NCBI RefSeq assembly: GCF_003334765.1
Contig: NZ_QOWT01000004.1
Direction: 5' to 3' (one strand)
From: Escherichia coli
GTDB lineage: Bacteria > Pseudomonadota > Gammaproteobacteria > Enterobacterales > Enterobacteriaceae
DNA length: 64,000 nt
A model generated the notes under the pieces. That model was not told the origin of the DNA, made no database searches, and saw only the letters and a list, made by a program, of their open reading frames with translations. The translations under genes were made by a program, and so were the position numbers. Position 1 is the stretch's first letter, and each line of letters opens with the position of its first letter. Below are positions 48,531 through 61,211 of this stretch, one piece after another.

Positions 48531-48562
48531 GAAACGGGCGTATAACACGCCCGTTGTTTTAT
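48531..48562 (+). terminator. Rho-independent terminator of icd
   Basis: Hairpin aacgggcg-tataacac-gcccgtt followed by a T-run. Confidence 0.75.
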
Positions 48563-48611
48563 TTATGTGGATATTATTAATAGCATATCGAGCATATTTA
48601 TATGAAGCCCA

Positions 48612-48935
48612 TTACTTGAGCCCATATGGGCATATTTTTATAATGCAACTATTATGTAAACATTTATTTGTTATTTTGCTTTCTCCTGGAGGACACTCTT
48701 GACTGCTTTTGAGTAAACTCCATAAATCCTTGTTGAATGGTGCGATGTGATAAATAGTAATAGGATATTCTTTATCCTTAAGGATAATACCAGACTTAAC
48801 CGGTGTAAATATACTGCCAGGAGGGAGAAATATAGTAGATTGATACCAGATGATCATTTTCATATTACCCCATATGGCTGAAAAAGATATACCACATGTA
48901 GGTTGAATTACCGTGTCAATTACTATCCACTTCAT
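48612..48935 (-). CDS. iraM: Anti-adaptor protein IraM (RssB inhibitor, Mg2+-starvation induced)
   Basis: 107-aa AT-rich [18 protein letters not shown]...; length and position immediately after icd/e14 site match iraM (ycgW). Confidence 0.82.
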
Positions 48936-49378
48936 TTGTTATGTCTTATCCCACGGTATTTAATATGGTTCATTAGGATGTTTATTTCTTGATTTTGCAT
49001 ATGAGTATATTACCCCCCCCCTCAAAAAAATAAATTAATTAAAATGATGGCTTATATAAAATAAAATTTAAAGCAAGGAATCTCAATGGATGTTAAACAA
49101 AATGAGATTTTGTGAAAGCAATAAATTATTGACTTCGTTTTAGATTTGTTTAGCTATAATGTTATACATTCAAATGACTGAACATCCTGTAATTAAAACA
49201 TAGCCTTTATGCTACTTTGTGCCAATTTGCTAAACATTATGGTTGCCTTTTTATATAACGATAATAATGAATATAAGCATGACATGAGAATAAGGTTTCA
49301 ATTTTTGAGTTATATAGGAATGATTTAACCTGTTCCTGGCTAAAATACATATAACCGGATGATGACTAAACCAAAATA

Positions 49379-49428
49379 CATGTGCGTTAAGTATTGAAAC
49401 GGACGTGTGGCACGGCCGTTGTTTTTAT
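49379..49428 (+). repeat. Diverged second copy of the icd 3' end/terminator (hairpin plus T-run)
   Basis: About 40 of 47 positions match 48516-48562 (catgtg..ttaa.tattgaaacgg.cgt...ccgttgtttt), with stem-preserving changes. Confidence 0.7.
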
Positions 49429-49635
49429 AAATATGTTAACCGTTATAAAATAACGTATCAAAAGTCAAGTGATCACATTTCAAATATCAAGTTGATAGTA
49501 TTAGTCTGGTGATTATTTATGGGTGACAATAAAAAGACAGTATTAATCATCCATAGAGATAGTCTCTGCACTTTTATTTCCATTATGCTAATGCCTTACT
49601 GAATTATGAAGCATTTCTTAAGTATCCAACTTTAG

Positions 49636-50040
49636 CTAGATTAATGGTTTATTATTTTCTACATCTTCAATATATAAAAGCGTATTATCAATGGCGTAGT
49701 AACTGCGTTTGTTATGATTAACATCAGTAACCCACCGGAAAACGCCCGCGCCTGCCAGTGTTGAACAGTATTCCCGAAATGTAGATTTTCCGCAAATATG
49801 AAGCAATGCGGCCTCTTTTATTTTAGCAGGGTTCTTGGTCGTACTAACTTTTAACAGGTTCCTGGTTCCTCTTAATAACAAAACCGTATCATCGTGAGTA
49901 ATAATTCTGATGTTATCCGTAGCCAGATAATAAATGTAATGTGCAATACGGTGATGTTTTAATTCTGAATAAAACCAGGAGAAGTTTTGCTCTTTTCTCA
50001 CTTGCTCAAACATCTTTTGAAAAACAACGACCTGATCCAT
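49636..50040 (-). CDS. ycgX: DUF1398-family protein YcgX
   Basis: 134-aa AT-rich ORF between iraM and bluR, matching the ycgX position. Confidence 0.82.
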   Translation of the reverse strand: MDQVVVFQKMFEQVRKEQNFSWFYSELKHHRIAHYIYYLATDNIRIITHDDTVLLLRGTRNLLKVSTTKNPAKIKEAALLHICGKSTFREYCSTLAGAGVFRWVTDVNHNKRSYYAIDNTLLYIEDVENNKPLI

Positions 50041-50260
50041 CAGGATAATAACCTCTTGTTAGTTGTGAGACTGCGTAGTGTGCACGATCGGTTTTACCAC
50101 TTCAATCTGGTCTGTCCTTTGGCTGTGATATGTACAGAGTGTGATAGAGGGAATATCTGAATTCTCCCGGTGAGCATTTTGCAACGGACCAGCTCCGGTA
50201 CAAACGCTGTTGTGGGTTCAGATTATAACATTCTGTCTAAGGGGCGGGATAAAGGTGAAA

Positions 50261-50992
50261 TTAGGGGGCATGAAAGATGACTTTATAACCTTGCTCACCC
50301 CAGTGTTGTAAAAGTTCGTTTTGCCTTCTCGTTGGTGCCATGCCTGTCCAGACAATCAATGTTTGCGTCGGGAACAGTTCCGGGCGCGGCGATTCAATGG
50401 GATCAGCAAGAACAGAAATGTGCCATCCTGACAATGATAAACGCCATGCTTCCAGCCACAATCGTGCTCTCTCTTCAACATTCCACGCCATCAGAATGGC
50501 TTCTTTACCGGGCTTACGGCGCATTTCGAAAAGCGAGGTTGCTGCGTATTCAATTAATGCGCCGTCAAACATACTGCTCATAATGCGGGAGGTGTTGTGA
50601 TCAAGCACGAGACGCTGGCGAACAGGAAGGTAAACATGATTAATCAATTGATCTACTGGGTACTCTCGACCCAGTGAAATAATTCTCGCGCGTAGTTTGG
50701 CAGGATTAGCCATGCGAAGAATTGACATCATCTCTTCTTGCAGGCGGCTCCAGTCATCTTCCGTATCCTGGCTGGTGGTTTCCAGTAATGCTTTAACTTT
50801 GCCTACAGGGACGCCATTACTTATCCAACGCTTGATCTCTTCGATGCGTTGTATGTCTTCTTCATCAAAGAGTCGGTGTCCGCCTTCACTGCGCTGTGGT
50901 TTTAACAAACCGTAGCGGCGTTGCCAGGCCCGGAGAGTGACAGGATTAATCCCGCAACGTTCAGCAACATCACCAATGCTGTAATAAGCCAC
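50261..50992 (-). CDS. bluR: MerR-family repressor BluR (YcgE)
   Basis: 243-aa ORF with N-terminal MerR helix-turn-helix ([30 protein letters not shown]). Confidence 0.9.
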
Positions 50993-51043
50993 AATTCCTC
51001 CTTGCGGTCACAAATCTCCGTCGCCTGTACACGACCCAATAAT

Positions 51044-51077
51044 ACTTTGTACAATATACGCTAAAATTGTACAAAGT
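51044..51077. promoter_or_regulatory. Perfect 12-bp inverted repeat (actttgtacaat-N10-attgtacaaagt) between bluF and bluR
   Basis: Seen directly in sequence; lies about 50-85 bp upstream of the bluR start codon; candidate operator or bluF terminator. Confidence 0.5.
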
Positions 51078-51196
51078 ATAAATAAGATTTCAGCTAAATT
51101 GGATGAAACATTATTTTTAATGTGGATTAAATTTAAACGTAACGTATTCATTTTCACGATGATTTACTGAAATCATGTGAAAGAATGTGCTGAAAA

Positions 51197-59181: not shown

Positions 59182-59237
59182 TCCCGCCGTTAGCTAAAAA
59201 ACCGCGTCGTATTCATCGACGCGGTACATATGAAATA

Positions 59238-59573
59238 TTATTTTTTGCCGATAGCACGCATGGTGTCATCAATTGCCGTGATCAACAGCATTTGCGGGTC
59301 TTTAGCGCAAACCTGATTCAGTTTTTCTACCACTTTGGCGCTCAGTTCCGGAGATTGCTCAATTTTTAAATCACGGCTGGCAACGCTGGCATTACCCATT
59401 ACCGCAACAATTTCTGCAACCTGTGCGCTGTCAGTTTTTGCCATTTCGTTGGCTTCTGCGCAAGTAATATAGGTTTCTGACGGCAAACCGTTTTTAATAT
59501 TGTAGTCCTGCGCCCAGGTCATTGGTGCGAAAACAAACAGGCCCGCCAGTAAAGCAAATTTTTTCATCATCAT
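59238..59573 (-). CDS. ymgD: Periplasmic small protein YmgD
   Basis: 111-aa ORF with signal peptide (start may be one of the first three Met codons). Confidence 0.83.
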   Translation of the reverse strand: MMMKKFALLAGLFVFAPMTWAQDYNIKNGLPSETYITCAEANEMAKTDSAQVAEIVAVMGNASVASRDLKIEQSPELSAKVVEKLNQVCAKDPQMLLITAIDDTMRAIGKK

Positions 59574-59576
59574 TCC

Positions 59577-59921
59577 TTATTTCATTTTACCCAGAATTGC
59601 ACCACCCGTACCGCCAATCACGGCACCTTTAATCGCCCCTTCGAGGCCATTGCCGGTCAGAACGCCAGTGACAGCACCAACGGCGGCACCCACTTTTGCA
59701 CCTTTACGCGCATTTTTACCGTCGCGGCCTTTTTCTGTTACTGCACCAACACCAGCGCCAACAGCTGCACCTTTCAGTACGCCATTAACACCATTGCCAG
59801 TAAGTAAACCAACGCCTGCGCCTAGCAATGCACCTTTCGTGGTGCGGTTCATATCCGCCATCGCTGGCGTGGAGCAGAACAATGCTGAGATAAGCCCGAA
59901 GGCAAGTATTTTTTTCTTCAA
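59577..59921 (-). CDS. ymgG: Glycine-zipper small protein YmgG
   Basis: 114-aa ORF with signal peptide and Gly/Ala/Val-rich repeats. Confidence 0.83.
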
Positions 59922-60397
59922 CTTAGATGTCCGGTATTAAGTAAGTTGCACACACAATAATTTCGTCTTCAATTAAGATCTGCTTAACTAAAGAACGCTC
60001 GCTATTATTCAGATAATTCAAAATGAGCGTGGCTGTGATGATAGGAATTATGTTTTTTACGTGAATGAGAATAATCTTAAATGAGGAATAACTCATTGAT
60101 TGACAATATTTTTATTCAAGAAGTGTCATTGACTGTTAACGCAATGTTGTAAAGGTAAGATAATCTGATTTATCAATATTATTGTGTGATTTTTATGTGA
60201 GCAGAAGATATTCATCAGCAACGATTACATTAGTCATTTTATTTTGCCGACGGCCTCATTGTCGAAAGATAAGCGTACGACAGTATTATCAGAAAAGAGT
60301 GATTTTTTATCCAACTACACTTCAGCGCACTGCGTGTAAAAAATGCCTCTTTCTTATGCGGGATATCATCATTTCATCATGATGTCTTTGGTGAGCG

Positions 60398-60840
60398 GTG
60401 AACACAATACACCTGCGCTGTCTCTTCAGGATGAATCCCCTGGTCTGGTGCCTGCGGGCTGATGTTGCAGCAGAGCTTAGGTCACTTAGACGCTACTATC
60501 ATTTATCCAATGGCATGGAATCGAAATCAGTCGATACCCGCAGTATATATCGTGAACTGGGTGCAACGCTGAGTTACAACATGCGCCTGGGGAACGGTAT
60601 GGAAATGAACCCTGGCTGAAGGCGGCTGTGCGCAAAGAATTTGTCGATGATAACCGGGTGAAGGTGAATAATGACGGTAATTTCGTCAATGATTTGTCGG
60701 GCAGACGTGGAATATACCAGGCAGCTATTAAAGCCTCATTCAGCAGTACGTTTAGCGGACATCTCGGGGTGGGGTATAGCCATGGTGCCGGTGTGGAATC
60801 CCCGTGGAACGCGGTGGCTGGTGTGAACTGGTCGTTCTGA
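60398..60840 (+). pseudogene. ycgI: Autotransporter beta-domain remnant YcgI (frameshifted, passenger absent)
   Basis: Two ORF fragments in different frames (60398-60619, 60628-60840); second ends with autotransporter C-terminal motif ...GVNWSF; no upstream passenger domain. Confidence 0.75.
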
Positions 60841-60853
60841 CCATCAACGATTA

Positions 60854-60880
60854 AACTGCGCTTCGGCGCAGTTTTCGTTT
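60854..60880 (+). terminator. Terminator-like hairpin after ycgI remnant
   Basis: aactgcgc-ttcg-gcgcagtt followed by TTCGTTT. Confidence 0.6.
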
Positions 60881-61152
60881 ACAGGATGTTGAAAGGGAAA
60901 ATTCTGGGGCAAAAAAAGCCCGCCAGTTACGGCGGGAAACCTCATCCTATGGGAGAACAATGAATAATGAAATTGCGGGGTTATCATCTCCCAGTATATC
61001 CATACTAACAATAAGGTTATTTACTCAACCAGGCATAAACATTTTGTTTTGTGCGTGGGAACAGCCTTAAGGTGTAAAGGGGGAGGTGGAAATAGCAATG
61101 AGGAGTATCAGCAAGAATACTCGCCGCTTTACCACAACGTGGATGAGAGGGA

Positions 61153-61186
61153 TGAAAAACTCAAGGCAGAGATAACTCTGCCTTGA
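61153..61186 (-). terminator. Rho-independent terminator of minCDE operon
   Basis: Hairpin tcaaggcagag-ataa-ctctgccttga with T-run on the minus strand (plus-strand A-run 61155-61159). Confidence 0.7.
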
Positions 61187-61211
61187 AGATAAATGCGCTT
61201 TTACAGCGGGC

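Follow-up and report, generated by a model that had tools for sequence, protein, structure and literature searches.

An apparently old, composite accessory region of AT-rich modules between icd and minE in a K-12-like Escherichia coli chromosome

The segment between icd and minE in a 64,000-nucleotide stretch of Escherichia coli DNA (contig NZ_QOWT01000004.1; the whole stretch is referred to here as the window) is, with a probability that we put at roughly 85%, an old composite accessory region beside the prophage attachment site in icd, made up of separate modules rich in adenine and thymine (AT-rich) that have decayed differently in different lineages. The evidence comes from base composition, mosaic boundaries, uneven distribution among strains, the spread of one module (a blue-light cassette) across genera, and lesions in individual genes. 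The region as a whole is probably of horizontal origin and may be silenced by H-NS. An earlier note, made from the letters of this DNA alone, had proposed a horizontally acquired, AT-rich island. The horizontal origin is supported by composition, variable presence and the approximately 20 chromosomal contexts of the cassette; the picture of one island is not, and neither is a recent arrival. The region is a mosaic because its modules have separate boundaries and distributions. In B2 strains, for example, the iraM block is gone exactly at a terminator repeat, pdeG is truncated at its 5' end, and ycgH has decayed further.

The proposed modules would be seven: iraM-ymgK, an 865-bp block with a copy of the icd terminator on either side; ymgL-ycgX, which is phage-related; the self-contained blue-light cassette bluR-bluF / ycgZ-ymgA-ariR(-ymgC); pdeG-ymgF; the ycgH autotransporter; ymgD-ymgG-ymgI; and a ypjA-like autotransporter, cut here to the ycgI fragment.

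Positions 48000-61500 were searched by megablast against 5,426 complete E. coli genomes. A match was obtained in all of them (5,426/5,426), and several matched at 100% over the full length. A derivative of K-12 MG1655 that carries prophage e14 aligned at 100.0% identity only from position 48345 onward. Because the K-12 match is perfect from that position and e14 precedes it in that strain, the window, which spans plsX to ycgJ, comes from a K-12-like E. coli chromosome in which the icd attachment site is unoccupied and e14 is absent. Annotation from two genomes, each matching at 100.0% identity, was mapped onto the window; the gene map is the RefSeq annotation of the 100%-identical strain KFu015, moved to window coordinates by BLAST. 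The interval under study was 48560-61211 (icd-minE) and the left flank was window positions 1-48559. Every gene named in the earlier note was present at the place given for it, and, as the note had said, the components are individually described: all are named and most have been studied. The features are as follows.

47259-48509, plus strand: icd (RefSeq annotation, mapped)
48345-48509, plus strand: 3' end of icd, the prophage attachment site, unoccupied (alignment break of the e14-carrying K-12)
48518-48560, plus strand: hairpin of the icd terminator (copy 1 of a repeat), with a GC-rich stem of 9 bp and a U-run after it
48561-49425, minus strand: iraM-ymgK block, 865 bp, 31% GC, ending in the second icd-terminator copy
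48612-48935, minus strand: iraM (RefSeq annotation, mapped; ymgK and ymgL are listed between iraM and ycgX)
49473-50040, minus strand: ymgL and ycgX (annotation), ycgX itself at 49636-50040
50261-50992, minus strand: bluR, MerR-like repressor (annotation)
51197-52408, minus strand: bluF, anti-repressor with BLUF and degenerate EAL domains (annotation)
52722-53929, plus strand: ycgZ/ymgA/ariR/ymgC, operon divergent from bluF and target of BluR (annotation)
54261-55784, plus strand: pdeG, CSS-motif and consensus EAL (annotation)
55916-56134, plus strand: ymgF (annotation)
56534-59181, plus strand: ycgH, autotransporter pseudogene (annotation)
59238-60096, minus strand: ymgD/ymgG/ymgI, small envelope-protein genes (annotation)
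60197-60382, plus strand: ymgJ (annotation), followed by an open reading frame of 39 amino acids before ycgI
60497-60840, plus strand: ycgI fragment, remnant of a ypjA/EhaD-like autotransporter (annotation)
61212-61478, minus strand: minE (annotation)

The AT-richness that had been visible by eye lies far outside local variation. The content of guanine plus cytosine (GC) is 41.2% in the icd-minE interval compared to 51.3% in window positions 1-48559, where no stretch of 12.65 kb falls below 49.8%. When only intact coding sequences were considered, median GC was 0.392 in the island versus 0.512 in the flank (p = 1.2e-6), and the median at third codon positions (GC3) was 0.396 versus 0.539 (Mann-Whitney p = 1.4e-7). 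Codon usage was also scored against the core genes of the window itself (with leave-one-out scoring of those genes); this index was 0.571 in the island and 0.709 for the core median (p = 1.2e-5), and the dinucleotide-signature distance to the flank was 59.5, whereas core windows of the same size reached at most 41.2. The composition and codon analysis that the earlier note had called for therefore separates the island from the core by all four measures. Its description of the segment as packed with small genes is also accurate, with a median coding sequence of 267 nucleotides compared to 832 in the flank and a coding density from intact genes of 53% versus 92%. The departure from the core is not uniform: sub-block GC spans 31% (iraM-ymgK) to 45%, and the codon indices of ymgD (0.767) and ymgG (0.685) are near that of the core. 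It might be argued that the dip arose by chance, or that intergenic regions and pseudogenes, which are numerous here, produce it, because intergenic DNA makes up 23% of the interval at 35.6% GC. However, the intact coding sequences show the dip on their own and no core window of equal size comes near it, which refutes this explanation and leaves it with virtually no probability.

Presence among the 5,426 genomes was scored by megablast coverage thresholds. The counts are approximate, in that insertion sequences (IS) or divergent alleles reduce coverage even where the gene remains. For each segment, the number of genomes with at least 80% coverage is followed by the number with any match.

48560–50100, iraM–ycgX: 3,837; 5,116
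50200–52500, bluR–bluF: 4,927; 5,014
52650–53950, ycgZ–ymgC: 4,865; 4,971
54200–56150, pdeG–ymgF: 3,964; 5,056
56500–59200, ycgH: 2,136; 5,089
59230–60470, ymgD–ymgJ: 5,007; 5,385 (any-match count inflated by a paralogous site upstream of ypjA)
60480–61211, ycgI remnant to minE: 5,212; 5,424
44126–47087, hflD–rluE, control: 5,425; 5,426

The interval is thus not universally conserved. Its segments reach at least 80% coverage in 39-92% of genomes (2,136 to 5,007 genomes) compared to 99.98% for the hflD–rluE control, and ycgH is the most polymorphic. The expectation that strain-specific variation would concentrate here was borne out to the extent that this is by far the most variable part of the window, but it does not extend to the right-most 0.7 kb, from the ycgI remnant to minE, which is nearly universal (5,212/5,426). 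Ten contexts encoding an identical MinE protein were all E. coli variants of the same island.

The variable presence does not reflect recent arrival. At identities of at least 99%, bluR-bluF matched 2,986 genomes and the core control 2,980, the remainder falling at 95-99%. Since bluR-bluF has diverged as much as the core, its acquisition predates diversification of the species, and the cassette has been inherited vertically from before that time. Most differences between strains are later deletions, pseudogenisation and IS insertions. There was no match at all to bluR-bluF in 412 of the 5,426 genomes, and genomes without these genes carry deletions with identifiable junctions. In cattle strain 113 the deletion runs from icd into the autotransporter at the ycgI locus and adjoins a prophage remnant (ompT, ISEc8 and a tail-fibre assembly fragment); exactly this whole-island junction is common to 149 genomes. 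The B2 strain BH100N has neither iraM nor ymgK, a 5'-truncated pdeG, and a ycgH more decayed than that of the window.

Copies of IS1, IS2, IS3, IS200C, ISVsa5 and IS903B were found inserted at scattered island sites in different strains, so that many strains have an interrupted island, and in swine strain ZF31 the inserted element was ISEcp1-blaCTX-M-55. A plasmid-borne copy of the island was considered, as each query gave 12-13 matches filed under plasmids. However, the core control also matched 11 such places. In all likelihood these records are pieces of chromosome, or F-prime-like records, that had been classed as plasmids, and not a mobile copy of the island.

The left edge of the region adjoins a genuine prophage integration hotspot, as had been stated. 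The island begins 9 bp past the icd stop codon. In the e14-carrying K-12, the 165-bp piece from 48345 is annotated as a partial icd pseudogene and lies beside e14 genes, and the BH100N alignment breaks at the same point in icd, where an element carrying sitABCD is located. Break points at 48345-48351 recur in unrelated lineages with different inserted elements (e14 or the sitABCD-carrying element). An uninterrupted icd-iraM junction was detected in only 3,030 of 5,426 genomes, a count that takes in strains without iraM as well.

Directly beyond this site, a 43-nucleotide direct repeat (48518-48560 and 49383-49425, 84% identical) surrounds iraM-ymgK. Copy 1 is the icd terminator and folds strongly (-20.7 kcal/mol, z = -4.9); copy 2 has decayed and lost the ability to fold (z = -0.6). 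In B2 genomes the repeat occurs once and the block is absent, with icd on the left and the ymgL side on the right, and in approximately 24% of genomes coverage of the iraM–ycgX segment is limited to its ycgX half. Because B2 genomes have one terminator copy between icd and the ymgL side, the 865-bp block is a discrete indel at the icd terminator. Either non-B2 lineages gained it by insertion or B2 lost it through recombination between the repeats. A relic of an e14-like integration before copy 2 was also sought but not found, in that the alignment score for a decayed icd 3' end upstream of that copy was no better than for shuffled sequence.

IraM blocks RssB-mediated degradation of RpoS under the control of PhoPQ and low Mg2+. 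Its gene is reportedly also controlled by H-NS, to judge by the title of work by Battesti and colleagues from 2012. The protein matched NF007393 at 172.6 bits (cut-off, 121) and also phrog_4407, the latter being weak evidence of a phage connection because PHROGs include prophage predictions whose boundaries may overrun. YcgX matched phrog_413 at 1.5e-41 and Pfam DUF1398, and section 10 of Tschowri et al. (2012; PMC3509220) lists ybcV and ydfO as its prophage paralogues.

Two other genera have IraM-family genes (NF007393, ∼107 bits, below the cut-off of 121) at a distance of 2.7-3.6 kb from the bluF cassette, namely in Leclercia sp. (L042, 5627-6001, between yegS and trhP), in locus L045, and in Siccibacter colletis (L059, 5997-6377). 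This could mean that the linkage of iraM with bluF is old, or that these genomes have a variable hotspot in common.

In the blue-light cassette, the window has the layout known for BluF and BluR, with the MerR-like BluR adjacent to BluF and the ycgZ-ymgAB operon divergent. BluR has the Pfam domains MerR and MlrA_C, BluF has BLUF and EAL domains with degenerate EAL motifs (EAIVQ/DHFG/IKIS/AMGVA), and YcgZ and AriR belong to the Pfam YmgB family. Blue light and cold activate BluF, which then binds BluR and derepresses ycgZ-ymgABC, and the light-dependent binding and the derepression of ycgZ both have experimental evidence (PMC3509220). According to the literature, YmgA and AriR then provide input to the Rcs phosphorelay.

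When GTDB species representatives were scanned with BluF, 80 loci were obtained, none of them from Escherichia (E. coli itself was not returned, so that the genus was either left out of the scan or missed by it), with BluF relatives ranging from Citrobacter (73-75% amino acid identity) to Pantoea and Erwinia (∼50%). All island and flanking proteins were searched against these loci by tblastn. The arrangement bluR-bluF / ycgZ-(ymgA)-ariR(-ymgC), in the same divergent layout, was present in 44 of the 80, each from another species of Enterobacterales, and clustering of the flanking genes distributed these 44 over about 20 chromosomal contexts. At none of the 80 loci did the cassette lie between icd and minE. 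Homologues of ycgX, pdeG, ymgF, ycgH, ymgD/G and minE were not detected within 10 kb of any of them, and icd was near the BluF locus in only two, both from Erwinia. Where BluF was degenerate in the manner of DHFG/IKI[NS]/AVGVE, bluR, ycgZ and ariR stood alongside it, in that same layout, in 39 of 39 loci; where the homologue had the consensus DDFG/IKID/AEGVE, bluR was present in 0 of 16. E. coli BluF is the most degenerate of the homologues.

Two other observations were made in Pantoea and Erwinia. A third BluF lineage (L072-L087) has the EAL pattern GVSE/DNFG/VRIG/AAGIE and ycgZ/ariR-like neighbours with no close BluR homologue, and may have a different partner. In an uncultured Erwinia sp. 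(L069, 10001-17099), icd is followed 4.7 kb downstream by a BLUF-EAL gene that lacks an accompanying bluR; the two genes are convergent, as in E. coli, and beyond the BLUF-EAL gene come ldcA and emtA. In K-12 the latter two are located a few tens of kb beyond minCDE.

Cassette GC was lower than that of the flanks at every full-cassette locus, by 0.5 to 10 points, and followed host GC (0.42-0.54). For this reason, the AT bias of the cassette is persistent and not a sign of recent arrival. Several points weigh against the horizontal reading of the region. The low cassette GC in every host may be a maintained property of these genes rather than a foreign footprint. Among E. coli genomes bluR-bluF diverges exactly as the core does, which gives no sign of recent transfer. 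There is no visible mechanism of transfer for the island as a whole, which has no integrase, no tRNA gene and no island-wide flanking repeat; the mobility features that were seen are the adjoining icd attachment site and the 43-nucleotide repeat, which brackets iraM-ymgK only. No tRNA or tmRNA (transfer-messenger RNA) gene was found in 44000-64000, and no Rfam family reached its gathering score in 47000-64000.

Some of these points would suit vertical inheritance, in which AT-richness stems from weak codon selection and regulatory constraint (low expression, H-NS, cold) and the differences between strains are ordinary loss. Presence in >90% of genomes would also be consistent with it, as would the Erwinia gene near icd, ldcA and emtA, an arrangement that gives a hint of an old gene neighbourhood. 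However, the cassette occupies approximately 20 contexts across genera, has been reported absent from Salmonella and Yersinia (PMC3509220), and is never accompanied elsewhere by the other island genes. Furthermore, it is not only GC but also the dinucleotide signature that departs from the core. Thus, vertical inheritance of the whole region seems quite improbable.

It has also been suggested in print that the region is phage-derived (PMC3509220, section 10), and in this form the whole 12.6 kb would have arrived once, as cargo at the end of an icd-integrated prophage whose remaining parts were lost (Tschowri et al., 2012). The interval directly abuts the attachment site, iraM-ymgK lies between duplicated icd terminators, both YcgX and IraM have matches among phage families, and the whole-island deletion of strain 113 ends in a prophage remnant, all of which would be expected under a single arrival as prophage cargo. 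However, the modules differ in their distribution among strains (39-92%), and the cassette is never linked to ycgX, pdeG, ycgH or ymgD/G in the 80 other species. Codon usage of ymgD and ymgG is core-like, and a decayed icd 3' end is not present ahead of terminator copy 2. The interval is not recognizable as a prophage remnant, since YcgX (phrog_413) and IraM (phrog_4407) are its only phage-family matches and no integrase or residual structural, integration or lysis gene is annotated in it. We consider this origin unlikely.

A more specific version of the composite reading would have the island formed by layered, separate insertions at the icd 3' hotspot. Insertion of iraM-ymgK would have pushed the original icd terminator 865 bp downstream, where the displaced copy then lost its hairpin, and B2 strains would keep the empty site. 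The bluRF-ymg genes would be a portable unit with GC below that of the host in all 44 species, perhaps a maintained property connected with H-NS-dependent regulation. Because the cassette GC is lower than host GC in all 44, a maintained AT trait fits better than a fading foreign mark. The combination of an insertion fossil at iraM-ymgK with a maintained AT bias in the cassette is, nevertheless, a tentative and rather doubtful proposal. In regard to H-NS itself, the main text of two genome-wide H-NS papers does not name the island genes, and PMC11335895 only cites the ycgZ paper.

Lineage-specific decay, which the composite reading includes, is documented in the right half of the region. PdeG, a c-di-GMP (cyclic di-GMP) phosphodiesterase according to the literature, has Pfam CSS-motif and EAL domains with all catalytic motifs intact in the window (EVLAR/EVTE/DDFG/IKID/AEGVE), and the 5'-truncated form in B2 strains is the ycgG2 allozyme (PMC6385356). 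The two decayed autotransporters of the earlier note are indeed decayed. Isolate 3702594 (L006) seems to have the undecayed form, with an intact ycgH of 2,664 nucleotides (887 amino acids) and, at the position of ycgI in K-12, an intact ypjA/EhaD-like autotransporter gene of 3,393 nucleotides (1,130 amino acids). Compared to the intact 887-amino-acid allele, ycgH in the window has a nonsense mutation (CAA>TAA at 58052, codon 512), a frameshift near 59107 where 1 bp has been deleted, and an in-frame loss of 15 bp at 56885. The ycgI fragment results from a clean deletion: 3,078 bp that L006 has (14013-17091) are missing from the window, the junction lies at 60497, and of the 3,393-bp gene the last 344 bp are left. 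Neither ycgH nor ycgI retains the intact frame of a type Va autotransporter (passenger and C-terminal beta-barrel, PF03797).

The leader with ymgJ and the 39-amino-acid open reading frame (60139-60497) shares 89% identity with the sequence preceding ypjA, which lies elsewhere in the chromosome (L005, 9001-9359), and identity between the ycgI-locus autotransporter and ypjA is 97-98%. Because of the latter identity, the ycgI and ypjA loci are recent paralogues.

Elsewhere in the window there is a second AT-rich patch, ycfZ-ymfA (32615-33861, ∼43% GC), where the codon index is lower than in any other core genes. This patch is also variable, with at least 80% coverage in 4,827 of 5,426 genomes, and shows a deep allelic dimorphism, 3,469 of 5,390 genomes matching only at 90-95% identity.

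The interval shows the traits of a genomic island, namely deviating composition, variable presence, and absence or a different location in related genera. Its island character, its absence from O157:H7 and its probable phage-associated horizontal origin have already been published (PMC3509220, PMC3309015). Section 10 of Tschowri et al. (2012) describes bluR-bluF-ycgZ-ymgAB as a minimal unit conserved in Klebsiella, Enterobacter and Citrobacter, which Yersinia, Salmonella and classical O157:H7 do not have, and describes ymgC, ycgG and ymgF as confined to certain E. coli strains (PMC3509220). Huang et al. (2012) predicted ycgXEFZ-ymgABC to be a genomic island not conserved among the three strains that they compared (PMC3309015). 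This island, Gist4 (GIST, E. coli O104:H4), has the same genes and was called on composition and transcription signals; the interval described here is wider, adding iraM, pdeG, ymgF, ycgH, ymgD-J and ycgI, each with its own boundaries and distribution. In genes, order, orientation and domains, the cassette is identical to K-12 bluR-bluF-ycgZ-ymgABC (Tschowri et al., 2009, 2012; PMC3509220), and judging by its sequence nothing functional would differ. The rule of Tschowri et al. (2012) that a degenerate BluF stands beside bluR and ycgZ-ymgAB is extended here from a handful of genomes to 80 species (39/39 versus 0/16). As with e14 and other elements at the 3' end of icd, the island starts at a recurrent break site, but the icd site of the window is empty, with YcgX and IraM the island's only phage-family matches. 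With xenogeneic islands silenced by H-NS the region has in common its low GC, its short genes and low coding density, codon usage unlike that of the core, and frequent capture of IS. Acquisition here, however, was ancient and not strain-specific, with divergence equal to that of the core.

Nothing in the region falls outside known biology, and its value for discovery is small. The contribution lies in a quantified picture in which most of the variation comes from loss, truncation or IS insertion in old modules rather than from the arrival of new DNA. Strains therefore differ, through loss and truncation of these old modules, in the way that signals of light, cold, Mg2+ and c-di-GMP are relayed to RpoS and Rcs, as in B2 strains, which have no iraM and a truncated pdeG, and in the 149 genomes from which the whole island is missing.

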